Shown: positions 21,442-39,438 of the stretch, piece after piece
How the letters are laid out: each line of letters opens with the position of its first letter
Numbering within the stretch: the stretch's first letter is position 1
DNA from: Steroidobacteraceae bacterium
GTDB lineage: Bacteria > Pseudomonadota > Gammaproteobacteria > Steroidobacterales > Steroidobacteraceae
Assembly: GCA_036824505.1 (NCBI GenBank)
Contig: DAITAA010000007.1
Span: 6,677-70,676, forward strand
DNA length: 64,000 bases
Direction of reading: 5' to 3'
The notes under the pieces: model-generated
What the model was told of the DNA's origin: nothing
Databases searched by the model: none
What the model saw: only the letters and a program-made list of their open reading frames with translations
Made by a program: the position numbers and the translations under genes

Positions 21442-22775
21442 CTGATGCGCGCGAATTCGACCGCGTCGATGTGGACCGCTCCCGACTCGTCAAAGACCTG
21501 GCCGAAGGCCAGCGACAGCCGGGCCTCGACCGCTCCGGCCGGGGCCACCGCTTCCAGTTCGTAGTCGTGCCAGGCATCGGTCGGCGTCGTCCCGTCGGCA
21601 ATCGCCCGCTCCTGGAATCCGAGCATTGCCGGGCCGCCGAAGTAGTCGCCCCAGTGGTTGTAGAACTCAATCTTCATCGTGGCGTGGTCTTGTGAGCCGG
21701 CCAGATCCTCTGCCGAACGCACGAACGCCGAGAGCCTGGCACGAACCCGCTCGCCGCCGGCGACGCTGATGCTTTGAGTCACGCCGGAATAATTTACCTC
21801 GCCAATCGCCTGACCGGAAATCTTCAATGCGTAAGTGCCATCGCGCACCACCTGCCGATGCACGAGCACATTCGGTTTGTCGTCGATGCGATTGCCGAAG
21901 ATGTGCCAGCCGGCCAGCGAGCCGCCGTGCTCGTCGAAACCGCCGTTGCGAAACGTGCGGCTGCCCGGTTCGTCGGTGAGCTCGTAGACGCGGACCCAAT
22001 CCACGAGCATTCGCTGCGGCCAGGCCGTCGTTTCGTTCGGCGGCGGCAGGAAGTCGCCGCCGATCGCCGTATCGATGATCAGTCGCATCGGCACGGTGAG
22101 TTTCGGCAGGAAGTATCCGACTTCGTCGTTGTAGAAAGTGCCGTGGTGGATGTCATCCACGTAGAACCGGAGCTGGTTCTCGACCCATTCGCAGGCGAAC
22201 GTGTGAAATCCGTCGGCGTAAGCGACGAGTTGGTCGGCGATCGCCGCTTGATGCTCGACCGCGAACGAATCCTGCGAAGCGGGATCATGCGTCGCCCAGC
22301 GGAATGCGCTCGACACGACCGTGGGCCGATCGCCGCGATGCTCCAGGATGTCGATCTCGCCCGCGGTCGGCCGCGGTGCGTCGGGCAGCAGCCGGATCGC
22401 GGGCCACAAGCCCCTCGAACCGGGCAGCCGGGCTCGCACTTCCCAGCGGCCGAACCGCTGTGCGCGCCGGCTGACGATCCGGCCCGAGCGATAAGGCAGG
22501 GCGCGCGACGGCTCGTTCTCGGACAGGATCTCCAGCTTGCCGTCCATGACGCGGATCTGTTCCGGCCGATAGTCCTGCAGCGAGGTATTCGTCGGCCGGC
22601 TGTCGTCGATCACATCCCATTTGTCGCGATCGAGCGTGTCGAAGTTGTCGCTCCACGCCAGGTGCCACTTGGGCGGCGGAACAACGACCGACTCCGCTTC
22701 ATCCGCGCCGATCGCCTGCGCCGCGCCCCACAGCAGCAGGCCAAGGGAGGCAAGGCCGGAACATGATCGCGCCAT
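21438..22775 (-). CDS. Secreted GH16 glucanase with C-terminal CBM4/9-like module
   Basis: 445 aa with a signal peptide. W.D.FD.LD..KW, catalytic EIDILE, then ..FRNGGFDEHGGSLAGWHIFGN.. typical of CBM_4_9. Confidence 0.8.
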   Translation of the reverse strand: MARSCSGLASLGLLLWGAAQAIGADEAESVVVPPPKWHLAWSDNFDTLDRDKWDVIDDSRPTNTSLQDYRPEQIRVMDGKLEILSENEPSRALPYRSGRIVSRRAQRFGRWEVRARLPGSRGLWPAIRLLPDAPRPTAGEIDILEHRGDRPTVVSSAFRWATHDPASQDSFAVEHQAAIADQLVAYADGFHTFACEWVENQLRFYVDDIHHGTFYNDEVGYFLPKLTVPMRLIIDTAIGGDFLPPPNETTAWPQRMLVDWVRVYELTDEPGSRTFRNGGFDEHGGSLAGWHIFGNRIDDKPNVLVHRQVVRDGTYALKISGQAIGEVNYSGVTQSISVAGGERVRARLSAFVRSAEDLAGSQDHATMKIEFYNHWGDYFGGPAMLGFQERAIADGTTPTDAWHDYELEAVAPAGAVEARLSLAFGQVFDESGAVHIDAVEFARIR

Positions 22776-25276
22776 CAGCGCCAGCGCACCACGATTTCCG
22801 GCGCATCGTCGATTTCGAGCGTCGCCTGCGGCTTCATCGGCTCCATCTGCCGCAGGCGCTCGAGGTACTGCTTGTCGTAATAGACGTCGCTCAGGGCTTC
22901 CAGAGGATCGAGCATGCGAACGACGCGCGATTGCACGGCAGCCGCCACCCCATTGACGGTCGCCCCGGTGACCGCATCGAAGCCATGCAGGATCACCTGG
23001 ATCCTGCGAAACGGCGAGGAATAGTTTCCGTCAGGGCGCGAGAAGCTGAGCTGCCTCGTGGCCGGATCGAACGCGATGAGCCGCCTGCGGAATTGCCCCT
23101 TGCGGTAGTCCAGCGTTTCACCGTCATCGTCGTAGTAAACGAATTCGCTCCGCTCGGCGCCGTTGAACAGGTGCACGGTGAGCACCGGTCCGGGATCGTC
23201 CCGGGTCGATTGCACCTTTCGCTGCATGGGAATGATTGCGGAAGCCTTCGCGAAGATCGGGATCCTGTGGCCCGCATACTCCGAGCGGATGACGCGACCG
23301 CCATCGAGCCGTTCGTCGGTGAAGAGATCAAACCATTGCCCGGCGGGCAGGTACGTGGACTTCTCCTGCTCCTTGCTGGTCATGGGATTCACCAGGAGCC
23401 CCGGACCGAACAGAAATTCGTACTGAAAGTCCGGCTTGAATACGTTGGCGTCGAAGGAATGGTCGATGCTCAAGCTGCGGCTCACGGGCATGCCGGTCTG
23501 AGTGGCTTCGTAGAACGCCGAATAGAGATAAGGCATCAGTTGGTACCGGAATCCGATATAGGCCTTCGAAATCGCCTCGACTTCCTCGCCGTAGGCCCAG
23601 GGCTCGTTGGCGGCGGTGAACTGCCCGCGATGATTGCGCAGATACGGGGCGAAGACGCCGACTTCGACCCAGCGACGGAACAGGTCCTTGTTGCCATCGC
23701 CGATATAGCCGCCGAGGTCGGGACCGGTGAACGGCACGCCGGACAATCCCATCTGGTTGACGAGCAGGGCGCCGAGCAGGATGTGCTCGTCCTTGGCCTG
23801 ATTGTCGCCGCTCCACACCGCGGCGTAGCGCTGGATGCCTGCGAATCCCGAACGGCTTAGAACGAAGGGTCGCCGGTTGCCGCCATATTGCTCGGCCGAT
23901 TCGAACGCGGCGCGCGCCATCAGCATGCCGTAGTAGTTCTGCGCTTCGAGCGCCGAGGTCTTCTGGCCGTCGAAATTGAACACCACGTTGTCCGGCATGG
24001 CCTGGCCGTCGATTGCAGGTTCGTTCATGTCGTTCCACAAGCCGTGGATCCCGAGATCCTGGTAAAGCTTCATATTGTCGATCCACCAGCGCCGCCCGCG
24101 CGGATCGGAAAAATCCACGAAGTGATTGGTGTTGGGCGCGATGTCCGCGACCCACAGCTCGCCGTCAGCGTAGCGCAGGAACACGTTCTCCTTCAGACCG
24201 CTCTTGTATTGTTCGTACGTGTCGTCGATGGCAATGCCGGGATTGACCGAGGCAGTGAGTTCGACGTTCATGCCGCGCAGGGTATCGGCGAGGCGCCGCA
24301 TGTCCGGGAAGCGCTCGCGATTGATGCGAAACGGCTGGTATCGGTGCAGGTAGTCGGCATCGAGTGTGATTCCGTCCAGAGGAATCCGCTTGGCGCGAAA
24401 TGTGTTGGCGATGAACATCACCTGTTCTTCCGGATAGTAGCTGCAGCGCGACTGCTGATAGCCGAGGCTCCAGCGCGGCGGCAGCGGCATCCTTCCGGTG
24501 AGCGAGGTGTAGTGCTCCAGGATCTTGCTAACCGACGCATCGAAAATGAAGAACTGGTCCAGAGAGCCGCCGTCGAAGCTAAAGGACGCGAAGCGGCGAT
24601 TGGACGCGCCGAAGTTGAATACGGATCGAAAGGAATTGTTGAAGAAGAGTCCATAGGCCTTGCCGTCATGCAGCCCCATGAAAAACGGAATGCTCACGTA
24701 CATCGGAACCTTGGGATCGTCGTACCGATAGTTGTCCGTGTTCTTGAGCGTAAGAACGGTCCCGCGCCGGTCGAGATTGCCGAGCTGCTCGCCCATGCCG
24801 ATGAAGCGCTCGTCGCTCTGCAGCCGCTTGTACACGGTGATCTTGTCGCCGACGAGCGTCATGCCGAGCTCTTTGCCGGGCAGATCCTCGTTGATGACGT
24901 TGCCGTTTGCATCCTTGAACGTGATGCGCAGGTCGGGGCGTAGCTCCACCTCGGCCGCGATGCTCAAAGTCTTGAGCACGACGACGGGGCCGGCGGCGCT
25001 GACGCTGAACTGCGAAAAATCGGGCGGCTCGTCCGTGGTCAGGGCATAGCCGACGTGTCGCGGCGACCCCAGAGGCGTCACGCGCACCCGGATAATGTGA
25101 GGTGAATACGCATCGACTGAGAATTCGGCCATGGCGGTTCGCCCGGCGATGCCGTGCGCAGTTTTCTCATACGACTGCACGGCGCCAAGATTGGCGGCGC
25201 GCGCTGCGGGAGCGAGGCTGCCCAGCATCAGAAGGCTGACGCTGGCCACCCGGATGAACGCTCGAATTGCCGTCAT
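22775..25276 (-). CDS. GH31 alpha-glucosidase (or alpha-xylosidase-type), secreted
   Basis: 833 aa with a signal peptide. The GH31 nucleophile block is GLWNDMNEP and the acid/base region is RSGFAGIQRYAAVWSGDN. Confidence 0.85.
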   Translation of the reverse strand: MTAIRAFIRVASVSLLMLGSLAPAARAANLGAVQSYEKTAHGIAGRTAMAEFSVDAYSPHIIRVRVTPLGSPRHVGYALTTDEPPDFSQFSVSAAGPVVVLKTLSIAAEVELRPDLRITFKDANGNVINEDLPGKELGMTLVGDKITVYKRLQSDERFIGMGEQLGNLDRRGTVLTLKNTDNYRYDDPKVPMYVSIPFFMGLHDGKAYGLFFNNSFRSVFNFGASNRRFASFSFDGGSLDQFFIFDASVSKILEHYTSLTGRMPLPPRWSLGYQQSRCSYYPEEQVMFIANTFRAKRIPLDGITLDADYLHRYQPFRINRERFPDMRRLADTLRGMNVELTASVNPGIAIDDTYEQYKSGLKENVFLRYADGELWVADIAPNTNHFVDFSDPRGRRWWIDNMKLYQDLGIHGLWNDMNEPAIDGQAMPDNVVFNFDGQKTSALEAQNYYGMLMARAAFESAEQYGGNRRPFVLSRSGFAGIQRYAAVWSGDNQAKDEHILLGALLVNQMGLSGVPFTGPDLGGYIGDGNKDLFRRWVEVGVFAPYLRNHRGQFTAANEPWAYGEEVEAISKAYIGFRYQLMPYLYSAFYEATQTGMPVSRSLSIDHSFDANVFKPDFQYEFLFGPGLLVNPMTSKEQEKSTYLPAGQWFDLFTDERLDGGRVIRSEYAGHRIPIFAKASAIIPMQRKVQSTRDDPGPVLTVHLFNGAERSEFVYYDDDGETLDYRKGQFRRRLIAFDPATRQLSFSRPDGNYSSPFRRIQVILHGFDAVTGATVNGVAAAVQSRVVRMLDPLEALSDVYYDKQYLERLRQMEPMKPQATLEIDDAPEIVVRWR

Positions 25277-25848
25277 TTCCGCTCGCCGCCGCGGAAGGTC
25301 ATTCGCTGCAGCGTCGGCACACGGTCAAACCACTGGTGCTTGAACGCGCCAATCAGGTGCGCCGCGAGCAGGGCGTAAAACAGGTAGCTCAGCCATTCGT
25401 GCACGGTGTGGGCCAACTCGTCGAGCGCCTTTTTCGGCTCCGGCGCCATGTTTGCCACCCAGGCGATCCGCGGCATCTCGAAGAGCCCGAAAACGTTGAT
25501 CGGGACATCGGCAGCATATTCCCACGCCGAATCGTAGATCCACCCCGAGAGCGGCATCGCCAGGATCATGAAATACAGGGCGGCATGGCCTGTGCGCGCG
25601 GCGACGACCTGCCAACGGGGTATCGCCGGGCTGAACGGAGGAGGGCGATGCCCGATCCGCCACAGGAGCCTCATCAGCGCGAGACCCAGCACCGTAATGC
25701 CGAAGGTCTTGTGCGTGTCGGTGACGGATTGCGTCCACGAGTAATCCGGCCAAATCTTGAACGTCCATGCCAGGACCATATTGGCGATGACCAGGACGGC
25801 AATGACCCAGTGGAAAATAATCGCCGTTCGCGTGTAGCGATCGCTCAC
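25273..25848 (-). CDS. Cytochrome b561 family (CybB-like) membrane di-heme protein
   Basis: GTG start at 25848 (VSDRYTRTAIIFHWVIAVLV...), overlapping the PhyH stop as GTGA. It has four TM segments with conserved His (HW.., H.T.G, H..LY, H....HL). The 407-aa ORF in the track is an out-of-gene extension. Confidence 0.75.
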   Translation of the reverse strand: MSDRYTRTAIIFHWVIAVLVIANMVLAWTFKIWPDYSWTQSVTDTHKTFGITVLGLALMRLLWRIGHRPPPFSPAIPRWQVVAARTGHAALYFMILAMPLSGWIYDSAWEYAADVPINVFGLFEMPRIAWVANMAPEPKKALDELAHTVHEWLSYLFYALLAAHLIGAFKHQWFDRVPTLQRMTFRGGERK

Positions 25849-26684
25849 CGCGGCAGATTCCGCGCAGTCGTGTCGCGCTCTTCGGCAAGCCAGACGTCGC
25901 TCGCCTCGTCGCCGATGAAGCGCCGCGATCCGTACTCGCGAATGCGGCTGTCCGGAACCTTGACGAGCGGCGTATAGCGAGGATGCTGCGATTCCTTGTA
26001 AGGGTCGTTGCGCGCGGCGTTGTAGCTGCAGATCATCGACCAGCGCGGGTGCTTCGACTTGTTCTGATCCGACCGGTGTAGCGTATTGCAATGGAAGAAG
26101 AGGACGTCGCCCGGTTCCATGTCGACGTGCACGAGCTCCAGGCGCTTGAGGACTTCCTTCACTCGTTCCATATCCGCGCCGGCCTGTTCGCCGGTGAGGG
26201 CGTGATCGAGACGACCCAGCTGATGCGAGCCGCGCACCACCTGCAGACAGCCGTTCTCGCGCGTGGCGCGGTCGACCGCGATGAAGGCGCTGGCCATCCA
26301 CGGATTGAGGACGCCGTTGTGATACCAGTAGCCGTAGTCCTGGTGCCAGGTCCACGCGCCTCCGATCAGCGGGTCTTTCATGATCATCTTCGAGTGATAG
26401 TGGTAGACCTCGCCGCCCAGGAGTTTTTCCATTGAGCCGACGATCGACTCCGAGCGCGCGATCATGCCGTAGATCGTGTCGGTAGGATGGTTCCACAGTG
26501 ACAGGCGCACTGTACCGCCTTCGCCGTCCGCCCGGCCGAAGGAATGCTGGTCGAGCACGCGGTCGGCGCGCGCCGCGCGCCCGAGCAGGTCGACCTCGAC
26601 GGCGTCGAGCATGCCGCGTACCAGCACAAAGCCGTCAGCGTTGAACGCGCCGACTTCCGCATCGCCGATCGGTCCCCTGGCCAT
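25845..26684 (-). CDS. Phytanoyl-CoA dioxygenase (PhyH) family Fe(II)/2-oxoglutarate oxygenase
   Basis: 279 aa. WHQDYGYW (HxD), ATRENGCLQVVRGSH, and FFHCNTLHRS (distal His). A GAGGAGAAG RBS lies upstream. Confidence 0.8.
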   Translation of the reverse strand: MARGPIGDAEVGAFNADGFVLVRGMLDAVEVDLLGRAARADRVLDQHSFGRADGEGGTVRLSLWNHPTDTIYGMIARSESIVGSMEKLLGGEVYHYHSKMIMKDPLIGGAWTWHQDYGYWYHNGVLNPWMASAFIAVDRATRENGCLQVVRGSHQLGRLDHALTGEQAGADMERVKEVLKRLELVHVDMEPGDVLFFHCNTLHRSDQNKSKHPRWSMICSYNAARNDPYKESQHPRYTPLVKVPDSRIREYGSRRFIGDEASDVWLAEERDTTARNLPR

Positions 26685-26699: not shown

Positions 26700-28058
26700 T
26701 CAGATCCGTGTCTGGCGGCGCAGCGTCCGCGCCGGCACCGGCGTTTCCGACCAGTACTTCTCGATCTCCTCCAGCGTCCGGTTCCTGGTTTCCGGCACGT
26801 ACTTCCAGGTAAATAGCGCCTGCGCCAGCGAAAACGCGGCCAGGATCGCGAAAGTCGGCGCCTGCCCCAGCCGATGCAATGCCGCGGGGAACAACAGGAC
26901 CACCACGGCGTTCGCCACCCACTGTGTCAGCACCGGCACGATCATCGCCGTGCCGCGGATGCGGGTCGGCAGGATTTCCGGCACCAGCGTCCAGAATACC
27001 GGACCGATGCACGAGCAGAAGAAAATCAGATATCCAAGGATCAGGATGAGAGCCAATGGACCCTTGAAATGTCCGAGCAACACGGCGATGGTCAGCGCGG
27101 AGAGCATCGCGGCCATCCCCAGCGATCCGACGATGTACAAAGGGCGGCGGCCGTAGCGATCGATCGTCCAGAAGGCCACCAGTGTGAACGCGAAGTTGGT
27201 GAGGCCCACGACGAACGTCGAAAGCAGGGCCGCATCCATCTGCCATCCCGCCGACAGGAAGATGACGGGCGCATAGTCGATGACGGTATTGATGCCGGAG
27301 AAGTGAATCAGAATGGCGAGCCAGAAGCCGACGAACACCGCGCGGCGCACGCCCGGCTGGAAAACTTCCCTCCACGAGTGATGGGTGGTCGCCGGCGCCG
27401 AAGCGCTGGCCAGTGAAACCTCGTACTGCGAGTCTCCGAGTTTCTCCATGACGGCGCGCGCCACGTCGGGGCGTCCTGCCATGAAGAGGAACCGCGGCGT
27501 CTCGGGGGCACGCAACAACAATCCGAAAAAAATCACGGACGGGATCACGCCCGTGCCGAACATCCAGCGCCAGTTGTCCGGACCGATGTCGTGCAGCAGA
27601 TAGTTGATGCAATAGGACACCAGAATGCCCGTGACGATGGACATCTGATAGAGCGCGCCCAACCTCCCGCGCACGGCCGCTGGTGCGACTTCCGCGATGT
27701 ACATCGGCGAGACCAGCGACACTCCACCAACGGCGAGGCCACCGATGAATCGCGCGGCGAGAAAGCTCGGAAAATCCCAGGCAATGGCCGTCGCGACCGA
27801 GGTCAACGCGAACAGCATTGCAATCCACAGCAGAACGTAACGGCGGCCGTAGCGATCGCTCAATCGACCGGCAATGGCGGCACCGATAGCGCAGCCGAAC
27901 AGCAGCGAGCTGAACGCCACCCCCAACCCAAAATCACCGAGCTCGAAATGCCGGGCCAGAAACGGGCCCGCGCCGCTGATGATGGCCACGTCGAATCCAA
28001 ACAGCAGGCCACCGGTTGCGGCTGTGCAGGCGAGAAACAGGACGTAGCGGAGGTTCAT
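26700..28058 (-). CDS. MFS sugar porter family transporter
   Basis: 452 aa with 12 TM segments. [18 protein letters not shown] and [12 protein letters not shown] are sugar-porter signatures. Confidence 0.85.
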
Positions 28059-30310
28059 GGCTGCTTACCGGTCTCTACGGCGAGCTTTTTCAGCATCTCA
28101 CCGATCTCGGGATTCGACATGAACGCGCGCCACAGCAGGCCGGAGCGATGGTTCTCGACCATGGCGACGATCGGTGCCTGGTTGAGGCCCATGTAGTGAT
28201 AGGCGAGCCAGTCCTGGCTCGGGTTGTAGTTGTCGCGCGGGCCGTAGATGCCCCAGAGCTCGGCGCCGAGCTCGCGGTAAAAGTGCTTGAAGGCGGCCAT
28301 CGACGCTTCGGGCGTGAACGGGAACGACGCCAGCGCCCCGGTCAGCGTGATCGTGCCGTCGTCGTTCCACTGGTCGGGTGCGGGCGTCGTGTAGCCGTTC
28401 CAGCCGAAGCTCGCCGTCAATCCCCAAGCGTCCGGGCCGTAGCCCTTGAAGCCCTTGGGGTTCGCGATGCAATACGCGCGATTGATGGCGGCGATGCTGC
28501 GGCTATTGTCGAAGTAGGACGCAGTGTAACGGTCGCGCAACTGGCGCGGATCGAATCCCATGAAGATGTAGTGGATGAAGAACAGCGGACCGCCGGTGCT
28601 GACGCCGACGTCGAGCTTGATCCCGTAATAGCTGTTGCCGTTGGCATAGAGCCGGCCGTCCGGGCTGCCCGACCAGCCCTGCCGGTAATCCTGCGCGCGC
28701 TGCTCCTGGCTCGCCCAGCCGCTGTAGTACATGGATGCCGGCACCGGATGCGTGGGCGATGCGATCGCGAACAGATAGGTCGGGACCGTCTCGTTGAATC
28801 CGATCAGCGGGTGCTGGATCCGGTGACCCCACTGTGGCGACCAGTGCCAGTACAGATACGGACTGTCAGGCGACATCCGGAACCAGTCCCATTCCACGGC
28901 TTCCCAGAGCGCCGTGATGCGATCGCGCAGCGACTGCTCGCGCTTCTCCTTGCGGTCGAAATAGCCGCGCGCCGTGAGCAGGCCCTGGATCACGTACGAT
29001 GTCTCGATGATGTCGCCGCCGTTGTCGTACATGCCGAAGAGCGGCATGGTCTCGCCGGTCTCGTCGTTGTAGTAATGCGACCAGGCGCCGTGGAAGCGCG
29101 GCGCGCGCTCGAGGAACGACAGGAGTTTTTCGAGCCGCCCGAGGCCCTGGTCGCGCGTGATGAACTGGCGGTGGACCGCCGCCACGAGGGCGCTGATGCC
29201 GAGCCCAGTCGCGCCCGTCGCGACGATGCGGTCGTCTCCCGGAAGGTTCTCGTGGGCCATGCCGGTATTGGCGCCTGAAGCTTCCCAGTAATAGCGGAAT
29301 GCCGCTTCCTGCAGCATGTCGAGCAGCTCCTCGTCGCTCAGCTCGCGCGTCGCCGCCGTGACGACGGCCGACGGCCCCGATTCGCGTCCCTCCCAGTCGG
29401 CAGCCGCGACGCGGTAGCTCGCCTTCGCGCCCGAACGGCCGATGAAGTCGGCGTAGCGATTGACGCCCGGCCGCTGCGTGCCGACCGGCAGAAACGGACC
29501 GCCGTCGATCGAGCGGGAAACAACGTAATAGGCGGCGGCGTTTTCCGCGGGCGCCTGCCATTGCACGTCGATGTGGCGGTCGAAGCCCTTCGCCGATACG
29601 CCGTCCGGTACCGGCAGCGTCGCGGCGGCGGCCGCCGGCTCGTCGTCGATCCGGATGTCGTCGACGATCAGCACGCGCTTCTTTCCGTCCGCGCGCCGCT
29701 GGTGGAAGATGACGCTTTGCAGGCGCTCGGAGCGGAACTGGTATACCGAGGCTGAGCGGAGCTTCTCGAACGGAATGCGGACCGGAACCCATTTTCCCGC
29801 AGGCAGGTCGCCCGTGTAGGTCGCGAGCGGTTCCTCGACGGTGAAGCTGCCCGGCATCGTCGCCACCTGGAGGCCGCCGCGCGCATCGGACAGCACCACG
29901 TTGGGCAGGTCATCGGCCGCGATGGCTTCCGGCGAATAGACCCAGAAAAAAAGCGTCCCCCCGGCGAAATCCGGAAATCGGTTCGGGAAGCTGACGAATT
30001 GAATCTGTGCGTCCCAGCTGCCGCCGGGCGCCGACTGCCATTCGATGCGGATGGCGTTCGGCGGCGTGCGGAAATGCTTCGCTTCCACGGGCAGGCGCCA
30101 ACCGACCGAGCGGAGCTCGCTCGGCGCGGTCTTTGCCGCGCTGCTCTGGAAGTACACCTCGCGCTGGAGGCTGTTGTCGAAGAACACGTGGCGGTAGTAA
30201 TCCGATTGCGCCGCGGCAGGATCGACGCAAAAGCTGGCCATGAGAAGGAGAATTCCCGACACTCGAATATTCATCCGCATGCTTTGGCTCCGTACCGCTA
30301 GCCGCTTCAT
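28055..30310 (-). CDS. Secreted multidomain 'glucoamylase family' (PF10091 / GH144-like beta-glucanase) protein with N-terminal CBM-like and Fn3-like modules
   Basis: 751 aa. The core ..[74 protein letters not shown].. matches my memory of the PF10091 family block (RFHGAW.H..N..TG......DDGGD.VET). The family assignment needs an HMM search. Confidence 0.6.
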
Positions 30311-31908
30311 GGCCGGTATCCGCCGGCCGTGAGGGCGGGTCCGAGCGTTGCGACGTGTGGCGCGAGCTCCCTCGCGAAATGCCGCCAGCGCCCGACCGAG
30401 CGGTCATTGACCTTCTCCGCGACGCGCGCGTAGCTCGGTGTCGGCGCATAGCGCCGGTTCTCATGAAAGTGCAGGCACGCATCCTCGAAGGGCAGGCCGA
30501 CGTGCGCAAGCAGGCGGCGCGTCTCCGCTTCCGGGTCCGCCACGAACAGCTCGTATTGCAGCACGTACGCCGTGCGCCCGAATTCGCGCTGGTAGCCCGC
30601 GATCAACGTGTCGGTTGCCGCCAGATGATGCACGATGTCCTCGATCCGGAACGCGCAATGGAATCCATGCGAAAGGTTGTTCGATAGCATCGAGACGGCG
30701 ACATCGCGTGGGTCGCGCTTCACCAGGACGAGCTTCGCTTCCGGGAAGGCCATGAGCAGGAGCGGCAGGTTGATCTCGTTAAACGGCGTCTTGTCGGTGA
30801 ACAAGCGCGCGCCCGGGCCGGTGAGGCCCGCAGTCTCCGCGCGCGCGAAGTAGTGGTCGCGTAGAACCGCGGCAAGATGCCGCTCGTCCGCCGCTGCGGT
30901 CGAGTCGAGGCAGCCGGGGAAGTCCCCCCCGTGCGGGCACAGGCGCTGCGCCACGGCGCGCAGCTCGCTGAGCCATGCGTGTTCGCCTCCCGCGCGCACG
31001 GCACTGTGTGCTGAGAGCACCTGCTCAATCAGAGTCGTGCCGGAGCGCGGCGCCCCCAGGATAAAGACCGGCTGCGGCACGTCGCCGCGCGTGGTCGCGC
31101 GCGGCATCCGCGCCATCGTCGTGGCGCTGAAGTATTCGCGCAACGCGCGGTAGAGAGCCGCGACGCCCGCGGCGTCGTAGGCAAGGCCGCCCAGCTCGGC
31201 CGCGAGCTTGCGCTTGCCTTCGACGTAGTCGGCCCAGGCCTCGACATGACGGCCGACGCGCTCGTAGAGTCGCCCCCGCTCGAGTTGCCCTTCACCGTTG
31301 ATGTTGCGGGCCGCCTCGATGATCGCGAGTGCCTCGGCGTCGCGCCCGGTCCGGGCGAGGTATTGCACGCGCAGCAGGTTGATTGCCTCGGCGGAGGACG
31401 CCGCCTGCGCGGCGTCGAGGAGCCGCTCCGCGCCAGCGAAGTCACCCTGCACCTCCCGGAGCTTCGACCAGTGCGCGAGGATCCGGAAGGTCCGCGGCGC
31501 GAGCCGGTCCGCCTCCGTAAAGGCCGCCTCCGATTCGGCGGTGCGTCCCTGCTGCATCAAGTTGAGTGCGAGGTTCGCAAGCGGCCCCGCGTTCGTCCCA
31601 CCGGTCTCGAGCGCACGCCTGAAGTGCCATTCGCCCGCCGGAAGGTCGTTTTCCACGGACAGCAGGGTACCCAACTGGTCGTGCGCAGCCGCATTGTCGG
31701 GATTCGCGACGATGGCGCGGCGCGCGACGACGAGCGCATCCGCGCGCCCGCCGTGATTCGCCAGCAGGGAGATGAGATTGACGAAGGCCCAGTCAGCGCG
31801 GCGATCGATTTCAATGATGCCGGTCAGTACCTTTGCGGCACCCGCCACGTCCCCGCGCGCAATCGCCTCGCGCACCGCCGCAGGTGTCGGTTCAATTAAC
31901 TTGGACAT
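30307..31908 (-). CDS. TPR-repeat protein fused to a PAPS-dependent sulfotransferase domain
   Basis: The start is taken at ATG 31908 (MSKLIEP...). The longer listed ORF runs antisense-overlapping into GH3. The N-terminal ~300 aa are TPR-like. The C-terminal domain has the 5'-PSB loop GAPRSGTTL and the 3'-PB motif [10 protein letters not shown]. Confidence 0.75.
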
Positions 31909-34135
31909 CGCGAATGTCGACCTCCTGCACCAGGGGCAGTATCCGCGACGATGCGCCGACGTGCATACGATAGCGCCCGGCAGGGTGGCGCCACTCGCTT
32001 GCGCTCGTGTCCCAGACTCGAAGAGCGTAGGGATCCGCTGCGATCCGAACGCGACGCCGCTCGCCGGGCGCCAGCTCCACGCGAACCCAGCCCGCCAGCC
32101 GCTTCGCGGGTTCGCCGGCCGCCGGCGGAAACTCAACATACAACTGCGCGACTTCCACGCCCGCGCGCTTTCCGGTGTTGGTCAGGTCGAAAGTCACCGA
32201 GAGATCCGGATCCACCGCGAGGTTCGCATACGCGAAGGTCGTGTAGGAGAGCCCGAAGCCGAACTCGTATGCCGGGACCTTGTTTCGCGAGACGTACCAT
32301 CGGTAGCCGACCGCCAGCCCTTCGTCCAGCGCGACGACCGGGGATCGCGCCGGAACAGAATCAGGCTTCATGGGGTCGGCCTGCGGCTCGGGCGGGTAGG
32401 GGCGCGGCAGGTCCGCCTCGGCGCGCGGAAAGCTGATCGGCAGCCGGCCGGAGGGATCGACGCGGCCGAACAGGATGGCGGCGATCGCCTCCGCGCCGCG
32501 ATTGCCCGGATACCAGGCTTCGAGGATGGCGCCAGCCTGCGCCGCCCAGGGCGTCAGCACCGCACCGCCGGTCTGCAGGACGACGACGGTCCGGGGATTG
32601 GCGGCCGCTACTTTCCGGATCAGCTCGTCCTGACCGGCCGGCAGCGACAGGTTGGAAAGGTCCTTGCCTTCCGTGCGTGCCTGCCAGGCGAAGACGATTG
32701 CCACGTCGGCGGATGCCGCGAGGCGCGCTGCCGCCTCGACATCTTCACCGGATGCGAACGTCACATCCGCCGAGGGCGACTCGGCTTCGATCGCCGTCAC
32801 CGGCGACGAGTGATGCCAGACGGTGCTGGCGAACTGGACCAGCTCGGCCGCGGTGCCGGGCGGCGTATCGTCGATCGTGACGCCGCCGATCGACTCGACG
32901 CAGGACGAGCCGCCGCCGGCCAGCACGCCCACATCGGCGCGACGGCCGATCACTGCGATCTTTCCGGCGGAATCCGCCCGCAGCGGCAGCAGACCGTCGC
33001 GGTTCTGGAGGAGGACGATGCCGCTTTCGGCCACTCGCCGCGCGACGGCGAGTCCGGCTGTCGTATCGACGGGCCTCACGGCCTCCTGCCGGTCCAGTGC
33101 ACCGACCGAGGCGAGGCCGCGCAGGATGCGGCGGGCCATGTCGTTGACGCGCGATTCGGAGACCTCTCCTTTCTCCACTGCTGTCTTCAGCGCGCCCGCG
33201 AAGTAGCGCTCCTGGTAGAACTCCTGGTCGAGTCCGGCTTGCGCCGACTGCACGGTGCTGTGGGTTGCGCCCCAGTCGGACATGACCCAGCCCTTGAAGC
33301 CCCATTCGGTTTTCAGGATGCCGTCGAGGAGCCGGGCGTTCTCGCAGGCGTAGACGCCGTTCACCTTGTTGTAGGCGCACATGACGCTGCCGGCGCCCGA
33401 TTCCTTCACGGCGATCTCGAACGGCAAGAGGTCGATCTCGCGCAGCGCCCGCTCGTCGACGACCATGTCGACGGTATGGCGGTTCGTCTCCTGCGTGTTG
33501 GCGACGAGGTGCTTGACGGTGGATACGACGCCCTGCGACTGGATGCCGCGCAGCTGCGCCGTCACCAGGCGCCCTGCCAGGACCGGGTCTTCGCCCAGGT
33601 ACTCGAAGTTGCGGCCGTTCCAGGCGTCGCGCTCGACGTTGGCGCCGCCGGCGAGCAGCACGTTGAACCCGCGGTCGCGGGCCTCGCGGCCCATGATTCG
33701 CCCGCTTTCGAACGCGAGCTCCGGGTCGAAGCTCGCGGCCAGTGCCTGCGCGGAAGGGAAGGCCGTCGCGCGGCCGTCCGCACCGCCGGAGATGTTCCTC
33801 ACGCCGAGGGGTCCGTCGTTCAGCTGCAGCGCGGGGATGCCGAGGCGCGGCAGCGGCGCGATGAAGCCGGCTCCGCCTCCCGCTCCGGCCGGCGTCGGCT
33901 GCCCCGCGTAGGCAAACCCGAGCGGTCCGTGGAGCAGGTGAATCTTCTCGTCCAGCGTCATCTGCCGGACGAGCGCCAGGGCGCGCTGGTCCGGGTCCGG
34001 GCTCTCGTCACGCGGGACCTCACTTGCCTGCACGGTCAGGACCATCGCAGCGGAAACAGCCAGGCCGCCTGCGACGCAGAGGAGGTACGGGGCCGCACCG
34101 GCCCAGCGCCTGGGCGCATGGCCGGCGGGACCCAT
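31892..34135 (-). CDS. GH3 beta-glucosidase, secreted/periplasmic
   Basis: 747 aa. MTLDEKI..L, GFKGWVMSDWGA (GH3 nucleophile block SDW), and a C-terminal Fn3-like domain (FGFGLSYTTF). Confidence 0.85.
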   Translation of the reverse strand: MGPAGHAPRRWAGAAPYLLCVAGGLAVSAAMVLTVQASEVPRDESPDPDQRALALVRQMTLDEKIHLLHGPLGFAYAGQPTPAGAGGGAGFIAPLPRLGIPALQLNDGPLGVRNISGGADGRATAFPSAQALAASFDPELAFESGRIMGREARDRGFNVLLAGGANVERDAWNGRNFEYLGEDPVLAGRLVTAQLRGIQSQGVVSTVKHLVANTQETNRHTVDMVVDERALREIDLLPFEIAVKESGAGSVMCAYNKVNGVYACENARLLDGILKTEWGFKGWVMSDWGATHSTVQSAQAGLDQEFYQERYFAGALKTAVEKGEVSESRVNDMARRILRGLASVGALDRQEAVRPVDTTAGLAVARRVAESGIVLLQNRDGLLPLRADSAGKIAVIGRRADVGVLAGGGSSCVESIGGVTIDDTPPGTAAELVQFASTVWHHSSPVTAIEAESPSADVTFASGEDVEAAARLAASADVAIVFAWQARTEGKDLSNLSLPAGQDELIRKVAAANPRTVVVLQTGGAVLTPWAAQAGAILEAWYPGNRGAEAIAAILFGRVDPSGRLPISFPRAEADLPRPYPPEPQADPMKPDSVPARSPVVALDEGLAVGYRWYVSRNKVPAYEFGFGLSYTTFAYANLAVDPDLSVTFDLTNTGKRAGVEVAQLYVEFPPAAGEPAKRLAGWVRVELAPGERRRVRIAADPYALRVWDTSASEWRHPAGRYRMHVGASSRILPLVQEVDIRDVQVN

Positions 34136-34172: not shown

Positions 34173-37100
34173 CTACCACTTGAAGTTCAGGCTCAGCTTG
34201 AAGGTGCGCGGCACGCCCGAGATGTCCCCGTCCTTGAAGTAGTCCGGCGGCCCTGGGAACGTGTTGATGAACTGGACGTAGTTCTTGTGATTCGTGACAT
34301 TGAGCGCGTCGAGGCGGACCTGGATCGCCGACCCGTTGCCGAACTCGAATGACTTCGTCAGCTGCAGGTCGAGCGCCATGTAGCCGATGTCGTCCTTCGG
34401 AAACTGCGAGAGCTTGAAGTAGTTGTAGTTGAGGCCGTTCGGCGGATCGGTTCGTCCGGGCGAGGTGCCGATGCCGTTGAACCCGGTGTTCGCTTTTGGC
34501 GATTCGATGACGAACTTGGCTCCCCCCAGCATTCCCCAGGGCAAGTCCATGGTGCCGATCGCGACCAGGCGGTTCTTCGCAACCTGGTCCGAGAGCACGT
34601 ACAGCGAGTAGTACGGAGAGGCGTATTGGAACTGGTAGTCGCCGGGAAAGTCGCGAACCTTGGCCCACGTGTACGTGTACGCAATGCTTGCGGACCAGGG
34701 CGATTCACTGCTGTAGGGTTTGTCGGCGGAGATCAGGAGCTGCGTGCTCCGGGTCGCCTCGGCGTTGTCGAAGAGGTAAAGCCCGCCGCCGCCGGCGTTC
34801 GGGACTGGTGCTTGAAAGGCGGCGTAATCAAACGTGTCATACCAGTACCAGGTTCCGTCACCAAAGCGGTTACCGTTGCTTGCGATCACGCCTTTGTAGC
34901 TCTTGATGTATGCCAATGCGACGCTCGTGTTCCAGTCAGCCACCCGGTTGCGCATGCCGAGCGTGAACTGGTCGGAATAGGGAGTCTCGAGATTGTTGTT
35001 GATGAAGTGCATCTCGCCGAAGTTGCCCGGGGCGATTGACGCCAGCCCTTCCGGCGTCAGGTAGGCGTCGTTCCACTCGATGCACTGGGGGCTGGCGTCC
35101 ACCGGGCCTTCGCAGCCCGGATTGTTCGCGTTCCAGAACTGGGTCGTCGGTGTGTACAGCGTCGCCTTGTTGCTCTCGAGCTGCAGGATGCTGAACGTAT
35201 TGCGGTCGTAGCTGCGGGCGGCGCCGCCGAAGATCACGTGCGCCTGGTCGGCGAAGAGGTCGTAGGAAAAGCCGAACCGCGGCGCGATCTGGTCCGTGGG
35301 ATTGCTGCGATTGTGGCCGTTGCTGATGTAGTCGTTGATGTCGATGCCGCCATTAGCCAGCGATTCGGCGTACGTCTGGCCGGGTACGTGGCAACTGGGG
35401 GTGTTGACGGGGCAGGCGTTGGTATCGAGGGCGAAGATCGCGTCCACGAAGCGCTGCGGCGTGACGTAATCCGTGTACGTCGGCGTCTCTTCGTAGTCGT
35501 AACGCACGCCGATGTTCAGCACCAGCTTGTCGTTGACCACCCAGTCGTCCTGGAGGTAGATGCCGTATTGCTTGTTCTTCGAGATCGCGGTCGCGTTGAT
35601 GGTGGGGTCAGCCTGTGCGCCGAAGAGCACCTCGAAGGGATCCGCCTCGACGCCATTGTCGGGGATGGCGGGATCGACAAAGAACGTATAGAGCGCTTCG
35701 GTCGAGGCATCGCTCATCTGCAGCTCGACGTCCTTGAACTTGACGCCCGTCTTGATCGTGTGCTCGCCATGCCAGCTGAAGTCGGTGAACGTGATGTCGT
35801 CCTGGAGGGAGTAGCCGCTCTGTGCCGCGAAGAAGTAACCCAGGGGGTCGACGCCGTCGACCTGCAGGATGATGTCGAAACCCGTGCCCCGGGTCCCCAG
35901 GGCCCGGTACCTCTTGCCCGGCTCGCTGCCCGCCTTCGACGGTGAGTCCTCCGTGTCCTCGTAGGTGACGGTCGCTTCGTTGAAATAGCGCTCGCCGGAG
36001 TGCTCCCAGCGCAGCGCCAGTCGCTTGTCGTCGTTGACGTAGGTCGTCGCCGCGGACTCGGCAACCACGCCGGCGGCGCCGGTCTGCTGCCGCTCCTCGC
36101 GGGACTTGGCCGACAGCTCGAGGCGATCGGAGTAGCCGAGTTCCCAGTCCAGCTTGACGAAGATCAGATCCTCGTCGAACGGATTCGCCACCGGGCCGTA
36201 GTTCTCCCGAAGCTCCGGCGTCAGCGCGCCAACCCAGTCGAGCGCGACGTTGTTGTCGTCGACCAGATTCTGCGGCGCCTGCACGGTGTTGGGTGTCGTG
36301 AAATCCTTGCGCTCGTATGTGACGAAAAAGTGCATCTTGTCCTTGATGATCGGACCGCCGAGCGAAAAGCCGTACTCCTGGCTGTCGCCGCCCTCCTTGC
36401 CAGTACCGGCGAACTCCTCGGCCGGGGTCTTCTCCCGCAGGCTTGCGTCCGTATACGTCATGAACGCGGAGGCCTCGAATTCGTTCGTTCCCGACTTGGT
36501 GACGGCCGTGATCGCAGCGCCGGAGACCTGGTCGTACTCGGCCTTGTAGTTCGACGTGATGACTTTATATTCGGCGATCGCGAGCTGCGGGAAAGGGTTG
36601 CCGGAGGAGCCCACCGTACTCTGGTTCGCACCAGACCTCGGGTTGGAATCGACGCCGGCTTGCCCGCTCGCTCCGCTCGGACGCACGTAGTTCTTCTGCC
36701 CGACGCCGTCGATGTAGACGTTGGTGGTACCCGTATTGAGGGCGCCGCTGCGGATCTGGTTTCTGCCCTTGGCGTCTACCGAAAACTGCATGCCGGGCAC
36801 TGCGTCGGCGAACTCGAGGAAGTTGCGCGTGATCTGGGGCGAAACCTCGATCTGGCGCAGCGAGATGCCGCTGCCGACTTCCGAAGTCCTGACCTCGCGC
36901 AGTCTTGCGCCGCTGACTCTCACTTCGCCGAGTGCGGTGGCCTGCGCCGCATCGAAATCCAGTGTGGCGGTGGAGGCGACGCCGAGGCTGACAACGTACT
37001 CGCTGCCTCCGCCCGTGACCCGGTAGGTGCCGGGCGGCAGGCCGACGAGCACGTAGTTGCCGTCGCTGCCCGACTGGACGCTGCGAGTCAGTCCGGTCTC

Positions 37101-37274
37101 GGTGTTGGTTGCCTTGACTTCAGTGCTGGCTGGCGCCTTGCCGCGCAGGGCCGCGCTCGCCGACTGTGCCGCGGCTTGTTGCGGAAGTGCGCTCGACAGC
37201 AGGATCGCACTGATCGCCGTCGCAAGGCGCCAATCACGCCGGGCCGCCGTCTTCATCTTTGTGCTAGTGTTCAT
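34173..37274 (-). CDS. TonB-dependent receptor, Oar-like (N-terminal carboxypeptidase-regulatory-like domain)
   Basis: ATG at 37274 is preceded by AAGGGA. Signal peptide ..LPQQAAAQS, then TGLTRSVQSGSDGNYVLVGLPPGTYRV (CarboxypepD_reg), a long barrel and a terminal ..LSLNFKW. Confidence 0.85.
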   Translation of the reverse strand: MNTSTKMKTAARRDWRLATAISAILLSSALPQQAAAQSASAALRGKAPASTEVKATNTETGLTRSVQSGSDGNYVLVGLPPGTYRVTGGGSEYVVSLGVASTATLDFDAAQATALGEVRVSGARLREVRTSEVGSGISLRQIEVSPQITRNFLEFADAVPGMQFSVDAKGRNQIRSGALNTGTTNVYIDGVGQKNYVRPSGASGQAGVDSNPRSGANQSTVGSSGNPFPQLAIAEYKVITSNYKAEYDQVSGAAITAVTKSGTNEFEASAFMTYTDASLREKTPAEEFAGTGKEGGDSQEYGFSLGGPIIKDKMHFFVTYERKDFTTPNTVQAPQNLVDDNNVALDWVGALTPELRENYGPVANPFDEDLIFVKLDWELGYSDRLELSAKSREERQQTGAAGVVAESAATTYVNDDKRLALRWEHSGERYFNEATVTYEDTEDSPSKAGSEPGKRYRALGTRGTGFDIILQVDGVDPLGYFFAAQSGYSLQDDITFTDFSWHGEHTIKTGVKFKDVELQMSDASTEALYTFFVDPAIPDNGVEADPFEVLFGAQADPTINATAISKNKQYGIYLQDDWVVNDKLVLNIGVRYDYEETPTYTDYVTPQRFVDAIFALDTNACPVNTPSCHVPGQTYAESLANGGIDINDYISNGHNRSNPTDQIAPRFGFSYDLFADQAHVIFGGAARSYDRNTFSILQLESNKATLYTPTTQFWNANNPGCEGPVDASPQCIEWNDAYLTPEGLASIAPGNFGEMHFINNNLETPYSDQFTLGMRNRVADWNTSVALAYIKSYKGVIASNGNRFGDGTWYWYDTFDYAAFQAPVPNAGGGGLYLFDNAEATRSTQLLISADKPYSSESPWSASIAYTYTWAKVRDFPGDYQFQYASPYYSLYVLSDQVAKNRLVAIGTMDLPWGMLGGAKFVIESPKANTGFNGIGTSPGRTDPPNGLNYNYFKLSQFPKDDIGYMALDLQLTKSFEFGNGSAIQVRLDALNVTNHKNYVQFINTFPGPPDYFKDGDISGVPRTFKLSLNFKW

Positions 37275-37338
37275 GAAATTTCCCTTGCTCGTTGATTCCT
37301 GCAGCGCCGCCCTACGCCGGCGCAGCCCCAAGTCCACG

Positions 37339-38295
37339 TCACCGAACCGTCGAGCCCTCGACGGCGCTCAAAGCCGCACCGATCATTCCGCCGCGCGCGC
37401 CGAGGCGCGCGCGGCGCACGCGCACGCGTCGTGCGTATCGCCCCCAGGTGAACCTCGGAAGCGCGGCGCGAAAACTGTTCCAGTACCGACCGGGAGCCGC
37501 GCCCACGCCGCCGCCCAGGACGACCAGCGACGGGTCCAGTGCATTGACCAGGATCGCGACGTGGGCGGCGAGGTCGGTCGCGGCGGAATCGACCACGCGG
37601 CGAGCGATGCCCGATTGCGCGCGCGCTGCGCGGCAAACTTCCGCCGCGTCCCCGGCGTGATAGCCCAGGGCCTTTGCACGGCTAACCAATGCCGGTCCCG
37701 ACGCGCGGGATTCGAGTGGGGCGAAAACCGTTCTGCCATCGCTGGCCGTAGCCGCGCATGTCGGGCCGCTCGCGAACGCGATGGCGTGACCATGCGCGCC
37801 GAGATAAGGCCGGCCATCGATGAACAAGGTCGAGCTGATGCCCGTGCCGACGCCGACATAGAGGAAGTTGGGACTGCCGCGCGCCGCCCCGAGGCGCGCT
37901 TCGGCGAGCGCCGCTGCCCGCACGTCGGATTCGATGGTCACCTCGCCATAAGCAGCGAACACCCTGCGGACGCCGGCAGAACGCCACGACAGGATGGCGG
38001 CGCTCTCGATCTCGCCTCCGGGGCCGACCAGCTCGGGTACGCCGATTCCAACTTTGTGCACCGTCAATCCGGCGCGGCTGCCGGCTTCGACGACTTCGCG
38101 CGCAACCGCCGCCGCGCGTGCGAGCGCCTGGCGTGCGCCGTTCGTCGCGTCCGTGTGGATCGCGCGGACGTGCCGCAGCGACCCGGAGCGTGGAACGAAG
38201 AGGCCGGCGCGAATGCTGGTTCCGCCGACGTCGATGCCGAGCACGCACCGCTGGCGCTGACGCATCCGCGTCGAGCGGCGCGCGGCGCGGCTCAC
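37339..38295 (-). CDS. ROK family sugar kinase
   Basis: VLGIDVGGTSIRAGL, and later GVGTGI..... with ROK-like Gly-rich blocks. The GTG at 38295 overlaps the bicupin stop (GTGA); ATG 38265 is an alternative start. Confidence 0.75.
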   Translation of the reverse strand: MSRAARRSTRMRQRQRCVLGIDVGGTSIRAGLFVPRSGSLRHVRAIHTDATNGARQALARAAAVAREVVEAGSRAGLTVHKVGIGVPELVGPGGEIESAAILSWRSAGVRRVFAAYGEVTIESDVRAAALAEARLGAARGSPNFLYVGVGTGISSTLFIDGRPYLGAHGHAIAFASGPTCAATASDGRTVFAPLESRASGPALVSRAKALGYHAGDAAEVCRAARAQSGIARRVVDSAATDLAAHVAILVNALDPSLVVLGGGVGAAPGRYWNSFRAALPRFTWGRYARRVRVRRARLGARGGMIGAALSAVEGSTVR

Positions 38296-39137: not shown

Positions 39138-39215
39138 TGCCCATCCGCCTTCTTCGAGGTGGTGATTCGACGACCAGGGCTCTGGCCCGGAATATAGGCG
39201 AGCCCTCGCGCCCTT

Positions 39216-39255
39216 GCAACCAGTAGCAACCATTGGGAACCAGTCGGAACCAGGG
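39216..39255. promoter_or_regulatory. Four tandem 10-bp repeats G(C/G)AACCAnnn (candidate operator array)
   Basis: GCAACCAGTA GCAACCATTG GGAACCAGTC GGAACCAGGG are contiguous, in the bicupin/GntR divergent region. Confidence 0.4.
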
Positions 39256-39405
39256 TCGATGGCGCGGCAGTCGCGCAGGCGAGGCGACGCGGGTACAGCG
39301 GTTTACAGCGCAGTTTGGGCGCGTTGCGCCCGTATGGCGTTGCCTCGTCGCAGGACACTCGGTAATCTGCGCGGGCGGACGCAGGCGGCGATGCTGCACC
39401 GCAAG

Positions 39406-39425: not shown

Positions 39426-39438
39426 TGATCGGTCGACC

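Follow-up and report, generated by a model that had tools for sequence, protein, structure and literature searches.

A TPR-sulfotransferase gene inserted as a bare open reading frame into a beta-1,2-glucan utilisation operon of a Steroidobacteraceae bacterium

Bacterial sulfation that depends on 3′-phosphoadenosine 5′-phosphosulfate (PAPS) is rare and poorly understood. The present analysis concerns a gene located in a stretch of 64,000 nucleotides from a Steroidobacteraceae bacterium (assembly GCA_036824505.1, contig DAITAA010000007.1; this whole stretch is hereafter called the window). This gene lies between two glycoside hydrolase (GH) genes, belonging to families GH3 and GH144, in an operon that also encodes a TonB-dependent receptor (TBDR). 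Its product combines, in a single chain, N-terminal tetratricopeptide repeats (TPR) with a sulfotransferase domain at the C-terminus, i.e. the architecture of a family whose members are named [quoted passage not shown] by NCBI. The TPR~Sulfotransfer architecture was already listed in 2005 for Mlr4028 from M. loti and XAC3051 from X. axonopodis (PMC554113). Carbohydrate utilisation loci containing a TBDR (CUT loci) were described by Blanvillain et al. (2007; PMC1790865), in a paper where the word sulfotransferase does not occur. A search of the full-text literature retrieved neither a functional study of TPR-sulfotransferases nor any mention of their association with TBDRs, CUT loci or N-acetylglucosamine (NAG, GlcNAc) loci. 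The two-domain family was therefore already named, and what is new here is its recurrent linkage to TBDRs and the documented relocation of one of its members.

Closest described systems and predicted enzyme

The closest relatives of the catalytic domain among solved proteins are the tyrosylprotein sulfotransferases TPST1, TPST2 and tick TPST (3ap1, 5wri, 8w5z; sequence E about 3e-14). They were also the best Foldseek matches devoid of TPR (TM 0.62-0.77, 23-25% identity). They share with the window enzyme the 5′-phosphosulfate-binding loop, the Arg and Ser of the 3′-phosphate-binding motif, the Lys, and a Glu at the position of the catalytic base. However, TPSTs are type II membrane proteins of the Golgi lumen without TPR, whereas the window protein is apparently cytoplasmic, lacks the N-terminal anchor and carries a TPR solenoid of 260 amino acids (aa). 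Furthermore, Arg101 and Arg105, which bind the peptide in TPST2, are unmatched in the window protein (Ala311 and Glu315). No carbohydrate sulfotransferase was found in the top 50 fold matches, and the comparisons of the catalytic domain with CurM and mycobacterial Stf1 gave E values of about 0.01.

Three other systems deserve comparison. RaxST from Xanthomonas oryzae is a tyrosine sulfotransferase acting on RaxX (PMC6637879, PMC4646787). It resembles the window enzyme in being bacterial, cytoplasmic, PAPS-dependent and TPST-like, and provides a precedent for sulfation of a polypeptide before its export. However, RaxST is devoid of TPR, and its gene is accompanied by raxX and the exporter genes raxA/raxB; no gene encoding a RaxX-like precursor or a RaxA/RaxB-like exporter was found in the window. 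NoeE from Sinorhizobium fredii NGR234, a Nod-factor fucose sulfotransferase, shows 27-31% identity over the catalytic domain, with the same PRSGTT loop and the same Glu. It differs by the absence of TPR, by its C-terminal extension and by its nodulation gene context, and the window protein scores 50.9 bits with the NoeE NCBIfam model (NF052394) for a cut-off of 500. The catalytic Glu was considered as a possible sign of a peptide acceptor; this was ruled out, since NoeE, which sulfates a sugar, has the same Glu. Finally, OGT and SPINDLY (SPY) are built on the same principle, with a TPR superhelix at the N-terminus followed by a transferase that depends on a nucleotide donor and acts on proteins. 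Among natural proteins, their TPR domains best matched the repeat region of the window protein in Foldseek and phmmer searches, in which consensus TPR proteins also matched. Their catalytic domain is unrelated (GT41 versus sulfotransferase fold), and the likeness is therefore an analogy only.

The original prediction of a TPR protein with a PAPS-type sulfotransferase domain between GH3 and GH144 was borne out by Pfam searches and by direct reading of the two PAPS-binding motifs (Table 1). Sulfotransfer_3 (PF13469) matched over its full model (1-216) at aa 280-476 (E 2.3e-35; 123.3 bits for a cut-off of 27), Sulfotransfer_1 matched with an E of 1e-9, and TPR_19 and TPR_14 exceeded their cut-offs in the N-terminal third of the protein. 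Two alignments were made with 16 and 39 homologues (52-90% identity); in both, the whole PRSGTT loop is invariant. R288, S289, G290, T291, T292, E309, K373, R398 and S406 are invariant among the 39 homologues; in the phmmer alignment, R288-T292, E309, K373, R398 and S406 fall on R78-T82, E99, K158, R183 and S191 of human TPST2. The proposed start, ATG 31908, is supported by the agreement of N-termini and lengths, since close homologues (531-533 aa) all begin at the same "MS" position.

The AlphaFold2 model obtained from the 39-sequence alignment has a mean predicted local distance difference test score (pLDDT) of 87.5 and a predicted template modelling score (pTM) of 0.86, and places an alpha/beta sulfotransferase fold after the helices of the repeat region. 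Repeats had been predicted over about 300 aa; they are indeed present, but since the 16 modelled helices span aa 9-267, their region is about 260 aa long. Neither signal peptide nor membrane helix was seen at the N-terminus, which is that of a soluble TPR domain. The protein is thus apparently a cytoplasmic PAPS-dependent sulfotransferase with a conserved TPR solenoid, and is predicted to be active. The TPR and catalytic domains show 76 and 73% identity with a homologue that is 75% identical overall, and 51 and 58% with another that is 55% identical overall. The blocks of the TPR domain that are invariant among homologues include GEWHFRRAL and one further block of 11 residues. From this conservation, the TPR domain is predicted to behave as a specific binding module.

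Insertion between GH3 and GH144 and origin of the gene

When metagenomes were scanned with the window GH144 protein, 80 related loci were identified. A sulfotransferase gene separating GH3 from GH144 is restricted to the loci whose GH144 shares at least 83% identity with that of the window. By tblastn, it was found at 86-92% identity in L086-L090, L092, L095 and L128. The "long GH144" open reading frames (ORFs) called in L087-L089 and L128 are artefacts of the gene caller, since tblastn detects the sulfotransferase there. By contrast, L093 and L096, the loci that come next in similarity (GH144 79-80% identical), lack the sulfotransferase, GH3 being directly followed by GH144 there, and none of the loci whose GH144 is at most 66% identical is labelled as encoding a sulfotransferase.

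The comparison of the window with L093 gives the limits of the insertion. The junction devoid of sulfotransferase reads ...GACATTGCCCGCTAG AGCCGGCGGCACGGAGCCACAGC ATGCGTAAGAAC... in L093, whereas the window reads ...GACATTCGCG[ATG - sulfotransferase - CCATGA]AGCGGCTAGCGGTACGGAGCCAAAGC ATGCGGATGAAT... On these two junctions, the sulfotransferase ORF is shown to have been inserted cleanly, immediately upstream of the original stop codon of GH3. As a result, the GH3 protein of the window ends with RDVQVN*, its last 17 nt being read into the insert, instead of ...EIDIAR* in L093. The 17-nt overlap between GH3 and the sulfotransferase gene, which had been noticed originally and which the junction confirms, is therefore a by-product of the ORF insertion. 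On the other side, the spacer that precedes the GH144 ATG is AGCGGCTAGCGGTACGGAGCCAAAGC-ATG in the window and GCCCGCTAGAGCCGGCGGCACGGAGCCACAGC-ATG in L093; in the window, it still contains what remains of the original stop codon of GH3 (TAG), together with the ancestral ribosome-binding site of GH144 (GGAG). GH144 probably starts at ATG 30280-30278 (MRMNIR..., signal peptide, GGAG 7 nt upstream), 26 nt past the sulfotransferase stop codon, since the loci without sulfotransferase and the annotated orthologues (L004, L167) use this downstream ATG. The ATGA (30307-30310) by which the sulfotransferase gene had been said to overlap the ATG of the next gene does exist, but it is probably coincidental rather than a GH144 start or a sign of coupling. 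Overall, the comparison of these loci shows that the gene is accessory and that a beta-1,2-glucan TBDR operon acquired it recently, as a bare ORF.

The search for related proteins indicates where this ORF came from. The 90% identical orthologue P0002 is found in the same glucan locus as in the window. Homologues showing 75% (P0023), 70% (P0029) and 56% (P0078) identity are located in NAG/chitin utilisation loci, beside a TBDR gene. In NAG loci, the sulfotransferase gene is convergent with the TBDR gene, divergent from GH20 and phosphotransferase system (PTS) genes, and adjoins genes encoding GntR, a NagB-type SIS protein and NagA. The linkage of homologues to carbohydrate genes is thus confirmed but does not concern beta-glucan specifically, the relatives at 56-75% identity being in GlcNAc/chitin TBDR loci.

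A search with GH20 retrieved a homologue on ctg4075637 (3,326,278 bases), a contig that also bears the window-type sulfotransferase P0004. This contig carries a beta-glucan locus including the sulfotransferase gene and, 240 kb away, a NAG locus that is syntenic gene for gene with L001 (62-90% protein identity), TBDR excepted. Neither a sulfotransferase gene nor a remnant of it was found in this NAG locus. The TBDR of the NAG locus in the window lineage (L166 7292-9892) is only 32% identical to the one of L001 (11612-14281) and belongs to a different barrel family; being non-orthologous, it has replaced the former TBDR. The window lineage has therefore lost the ancestral TBDR-sulfotransferase pair of its NAG locus, and the glucan-operon copy is the only sulfotransferase copy detected in this lineage at an identity of at least 54%. 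Taken together, these results show that the window gene derives from a copy that elsewhere sits in a NAG TBDR locus. Its location in a beta-1,2-glucan TBDR operon after this relocation is unusual within the named family.

Genomic contexts of the family and nature of the acceptor

The family is large, with 3,655 representative clusters at E <= 1e-30, a number that rises to 17,651 when the threshold is relaxed to 1e-10. A family scan, restricted to one genome per species, gave 80 loci, which were analyzed by gene calling based on the GC content of third codon positions (GC3), clustering and annotation of cluster representatives. Among the nine loci whose sulfotransferase is at least 50% identical to the window protein, seven have an adjacent TBDR gene. 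The 16 loci of the 40-50% band are NAG loci from Woeseiaceae, Lysobacterales, Caulobacter, Asticcacaulis and Sphingomonadales, with a TBDR gene at most two genes away in five and a GH20 gene at most four genes away in seven. The 33-40% band (n = 42; Acetobacteraceae, Stellaceae and Azospirillum) has a TBDR gene within two genes in a single locus. Below 33% identity (n = 15), a TBDR gene is found within two genes in six loci and several paralogues are present in 10; the neighbours encode M24 and S10 peptidases, a beta-lactamase-fold hydrolase, FKBP and homologues of Asp/Asn beta-hydroxylases. When the loci with a called sulfotransferase are pooled, TBDRs represent 21 of the 278 genes located at most two positions from the sulfotransferase gene and three of the 419 genes located more than four positions away (odds ratio 11, Fisher p = 1e-6, uncorrected for phylogeny).

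RefSeq replicons give the same picture: a TBDR gene then a sulfotransferase gene on Pseudoalteromonas pPBSW1; LacI, alpha-glucosidase, TBDR, sulfotransferase and TBDR genes on pLA3 of Novosphingobium pentaromativorans; TBDR, sulfotransferase, beta-hydroxylase and sulfotransferase genes in Asticcacaulis. More distant relatives adjoin TBDR genes in maltodextrin/alpha-glucan loci and in peptidase loci, and the peptidase/TBDR loci hold several paralogues. What recurs beside these genes is an uptake locus with a TBDR, whose substrate varies, and not beta-glucan. The link is not universal, since the 33-40% branch lacks a nearby TBDR gene. In a proteomic study of C. crescentus grown with GlcNAc (PMC13046382, supplement), a "sulfotransferase family protein" was not induced; no connection of this protein with the NAG locus or with the TPR-sulfotransferase family could be established.

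Several other features of the family were observed. In the 33-40% branch (L020-L063), 19 of the 42 sulfotransferase genes adjoin a gene encoding a second TPR protein with a weakly GT9-like C-terminus (such as L029 3007-4419), and an unannotated protein of about 850 aa is often encoded next to them (such as L024 2-2554). PDB sequence searches with these two neighbours gave TPR matches or nothing, and the 850-aa protein has no Pfam match; this cluster may be a separate protein-modification module. In L085, L069, L075 and L171, two to four distant paralogues are interleaved with genes encoding TBDRs, M24, S10 and beta-lactamase-fold enzymes, FKBP and beta-hydroxylase homologues, the order in L085 being TBDR, sulfotransferase, sulfotransferase, an unlabelled gene, TBDR, sulfotransferase, TBDR. 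P0243, P0250, P0276 and P0297 are giant members (1,650-2,500 aa) in which the query matches five to seven distinct stretches, i.e. multi-domain TPR-sulfotransferase arrays. On the megaplasmid of Ralstonia solanacearum (L173), a 700-aa homologue (4618-6720) is encoded about 2 kb from cysC (8782-9336), which encodes adenosine 5′-phosphosulfate kinase and plausibly provides a dedicated PAPS supply for that branch of the family.

We favour, with a probability of about 0.4, an explanation in which a relocated accessory enzyme sulfates a TPR-recruited macromolecular acceptor, most likely a protein, that is linked to uptake by TBDRs. As the comparisons above show, the ORF left its place beside the TBDR gene of a NAG locus and entered the 3′ end of GH3, thereby becoming co-transcribed with another TBDR operon. 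The TPR solenoid would recruit the acceptor in the fashion of OGT and SPY, and the TPST-like catalytic domain would O-sulfate it in the cytoplasm. This acceptor would be common to nutrient-uptake systems with TBDRs, whatever the sugar used. It could be a conserved partner of the uptake machinery, or else a component bound for the envelope and modified before its export. The equal conservation of the TPR domain between the NAG and glucan copies points to one conserved binding partner rather than to locus-specific ones. The enzyme is probably not a step of beta-1,2-glucan catabolism, for which the gene would be dispensable.

Several points weigh against this explanation: (i) homology does not decide between a peptide and a sugar acceptor, since NoeE is about as similar to the enzyme as TPSTs are and has the same Glu; (ii) inspection of the N-termini of 32 neighbouring TBDRs revealed no Tyr-rich, acidic or other shared motif; (iii) PAPS is cytoplasmic, whereas TBDRs and hydrolases are exported; (iv) the ancestral TBDR was replaced and the sulfotransferase gene now adjoins a TBDR gene of another type, which argues against a strictly cognate TBDR substrate; (v) the link to TBDRs is missing in the branch from Acetobacteraceae, Azospirillum and Stellaceae; (vi) the enrichment in TBDRs was calculated regardless of phylogeny; and (vii) the relocation into a second TBDR operon could be due to chance. 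A stronger version, in which TPR-sulfotransferases are a widespread accessory module of TBDR loci that sulfates a protein of the uptake machinery (such as a receptor precursor) before its export, is rather doubtful. If it were true, sulfation would tune outer-membrane transport as sulfotyrosine tunes eukaryotic receptors, and the relocation would reflect selection for co-expression of the enzyme with a TBDR operon.

The acceptor could also be an imported mono- or oligosaccharide (a gluco-oligosaccharide here, GlcNAc or a chito-oligosaccharide in NAG loci) that is sulfated in the cytoplasm, the product serving, for instance, as an inducer or a signal, or for storage or export. All the examined relatives showing at least 40% identity sit in carbohydrate loci, homology to NoeE is detectable and includes the catalytic Glu, and NodH-type enzymes use chitin oligomers. 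Nevertheless, this explanation is unlikely. Enzymes that are 75% identical, with an equally conserved TPR domain, occupy loci dedicated to different sugars, and the sugar of NAG loci enters through the PTS as GlcNAc-6-P, whereas the window encodes a monosaccharide-type transporter of the major facilitator superfamily (MFS) and a ROK kinase. Moreover, the pathway of the nearest relatives works without the sulfotransferase gene, distant members are found in peptidase loci, the score with the NoeE profile is 51 bits for a cut-off of 500 and no sulfatase is encoded in the window. The sulfation of an imported gluco-oligosaccharide, one of the roles initially proposed, is thus disfavoured because the gene was recently inserted and its relatives are found in NAG and other TBDR loci.

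Sulfation of an envelope glycoconjugate or lipid, i.e. lipopolysaccharide (LPS), a precursor of capsule or exopolysaccharide, or a membrane lipid, would change the surface charge near the uptake machinery when the operon is induced. Such enzymes exist in rhizobia, where LpsS and KpsS act on LPS and capsule. Family members often adjoin homologues of Asp/Asn beta-hydroxylases, whose bacterial relatives LpxO and OlsC hydroxylate lipids, and an OlsE-like hydroxylase gene closes the window operon. However, this last gene and the GH16 gene lie outside the conserved locus (both are missing in L004 and L167), no glycosyltransferase or export gene is found nearby and the TPR domain has no obvious role for a lipid acceptor. 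We therefore regard an envelope acceptor as rather unlikely.

The acceptor could alternatively be a small molecule (aglycone, phenolic compound or metabolite) sulfated for detoxification or signalling, the linkage to TBDRs then reflecting co-regulation during foraging. PAPS-dependent sulfotransferases acting on small molecules are common, GH3 enzymes free aglycones from glycosides, and the Ralstonia homologue encoded near cysC has no TBDR gene nearby. It is nonetheless improbable, because the closest folds are TPSTs and not cytosolic SULT-type enzymes (CurM and Stf1 being barely matched) and a conserved TPR solenoid would be unusual for such an enzyme. Lastly, sulfation and export of a small ribosomal peptide encoded nearby, as in RaxST-type systems or in those producing ribosomally synthesized and post-translationally modified peptides, would fit the TPST/RaxST-like catalytic domain and the presence of sulfotransferases in some lasso-peptide clusters (gene list, PMC10040529), but it is very improbable and largely refuted by the locus content: no space is left for a precursor gene (17-nt overlap and 26-nt spacer here, 10-110 nt in NAG loci) and the window encodes neither a peptidase-containing ABC exporter nor RaxA/B-like proteins.

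The operon, the rest of the window and biological meaning

The sulfotransferase gene belongs to an operon of about 12 minus-strand genes separated by gaps of at most 40 nt (Table 1), whose order is cupin, ROK, TBDR, GH3, sulfotransferase, GH144, MFS, PhyH, cytochrome b561, GH31, GH16 and OlsE-like. Like described CUT loci, it associates a TBDR, an inner-membrane transporter, degradative enzymes (GH3, GH144, GH31 and GH16) and a GntR-UTRA regulator, the set that defines such loci; it is a locus of the CUT type, for beta-1,2-glucan and other beta-glucans. The product of the gene downstream of the sulfotransferase gene, initially described as GH144-like, matches BDI_3064 from Parabacteroides (5z06; E 2e-206, full length, aa 39-743) and the endo-beta-1,2-glucanase from Chitinophaga (5gzh; E 5e-114) and is, judging by these matches, a genuine GH144. 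Orthologues of the operon TBDR occur in loci with and without sulfotransferase. The arrangement of ROK kinase, cupin and divergent GntR genes is also found in L004 and L167, whereas the OlsE-like and GH16 genes are missing from these orthologous loci, so that the end of the operon differs among close relatives. The scan for promoters and terminators, carried out on 20-40 kb of the window, placed a single promoter-like site at the head of the operon; in this interval, sites were no more frequent than in shuffled sequence.

A cytoplasmic enzyme among secreted hydrolases had been considered unexpected. It does lack a signal peptide, but it is not the sole non-secreted product, since the ROK kinase, cupin, PhyH, cytochrome b561, MFS transporter and fatty-acid hydroxylase are also cytoplasmic or inner-membrane proteins. 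The alternative idea of a biosynthetic role for part of the locus is unsupported because every neighbouring gene is catabolic or related to transport. The whole window is a glucan island that includes GH97, several GH13, a second TBDR, two sugar ATP-binding cassette (ABC) systems, a second GH3 and glycogen genes. Neither PAPS-supply genes nor a sulfatase gene were found among all the genes called in the window.

Table 1. Coordinates, strand and supporting evidence of the features of the window.
Feature	Position	Strand	Evidence or remark
TPR-sulfotransferase gene (533 aa + stop)	30307..31908	-	ORF list/translation, Pfam, homologue N-termini
TPR-like helical solenoid, aa 9-267, 16 helices (about 8 helix pairs)	31108..31884	-	AlphaFold model, Foldseek/phmmer
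Sulfotransferase domain, aa 279-528	30325..31074	-	Pfam; sequence and fold likeness to TPST1/2 and tick TPST
5′-phosphosulfate-binding loop GAPRSGTTL, aa 285-293	31030..31056	-	direct reading; aligns with GVPRSGTTL of TPST2
Glu309, aligned to catalytic base Glu99 of TPST2	30982..30984	-	phmmer alignment; invariant
3′-phosphate-binding motif, aa 397-406 (R398, S406 invariant)	30691..30720	-	direct reading and alignments
Overlap of GH3 3′ end and sulfotransferase start (17 nt)	31892..31908	-	junction comparison with L093
Spacer after sulfotransferase stop (26 nt)	30281..30306	-	relic TAG 30298-30300 and GGAG 30288-30291
GH3 beta-glucosidase, periplasmic, signal-like N-terminus	31892..34135	-	Pfam (Glyco_hydro_3 N and C, Fn3-like); PDB beta-glucosidases E 1e-126
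GH144 beta-1,2-glucan-active enzyme	28055..30280	-	PF10091; probable start 30280, ORF extends to 30310
TBDR, CarboxypepD_reg and OMP_b-brl_4 type, two genes upstream of sulfotransferase	34173..37337	-	Pfam
ROK kinase	37339-38295	-	Pfam
Cupin	38292-39233	-	Pfam
GntR/UTRA regulator, divergent	39214-40209	+	Pfam; starts uncertain
MFS sugar transporter	26700-28058	-	Pfam/NCBIfam
PhyH dioxygenase	25845-26684	-	Pfam/NCBIfam
Cytochrome b561	25273-25848	-	Pfam/NCBIfam
GH31	22775-25276	-	Pfam/NCBIfam
GH16	21438-22775	-	Pfam/NCBIfam
OlsE-like fatty-acid hydroxylase	20242-21441	-	Pfam/NCBIfam
Y1 transposase domain protein, IS200-like, 295 aa	10953-11837	-	GC3 0.71
Secreted cyclomaltodextrinase-esterase fusion, 912 aa	12013-14748	-	GH13 with N- and C-terminal domains
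DUF4886 and GH16-like fusion	18585-20219	+	
Second PhyH-type Fe/2-oxoglutarate dioxygenase	43233-44015	+	
Second GH3	46329-48671	+	

Some genes of the window are worth mentioning for themselves. The PhyH gene is translationally coupled to the cytochrome b561 gene, and the pair is kept in L004, L167 and L093, regardless of the presence of the sulfotransferase gene. A second PhyH-type dioxygenase gene is flanked by ABC permease genes on one side and by a GFO/IDH/MocA oxidoreductase gene on the other, and both PhyH-type genes are thus found within sugar-uptake operons. The gene encoding a protein with an IS200-like Y1 transposase domain, of lower GC3, is located between the second TBDR gene and the cyclomaltodextrinase gene and may correspond to a transposase that is domesticated or associated with repetitive extragenic palindromes. 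The cyclomaltodextrinase itself is fused to a C-terminal esterase domain. The GC3 of the DUF4886/GH16-like fusion and of the second GH3 (0.69-0.71 compared to 0.8-0.88 for their neighbours) suggests a more recent acquisition of these two genes.

TPR-sulfotransferase genes recur beside TBDR genes in chitin, beta-glucan, alpha-glucan and peptide loci, and the copy of the window was relocated, as an ORF alone, between two settings of this kind. This raises the question of what becomes sulfated once outer-membrane uptake systems are switched on. Sulfation of a sugar or a lipid would yield a bacterial sulfated metabolite of a new kind; if the acceptor is a protein of the uptake machinery, its sulfation would add a new layer of control to nutrient scavenging in soil and aquatic Proteobacteria.

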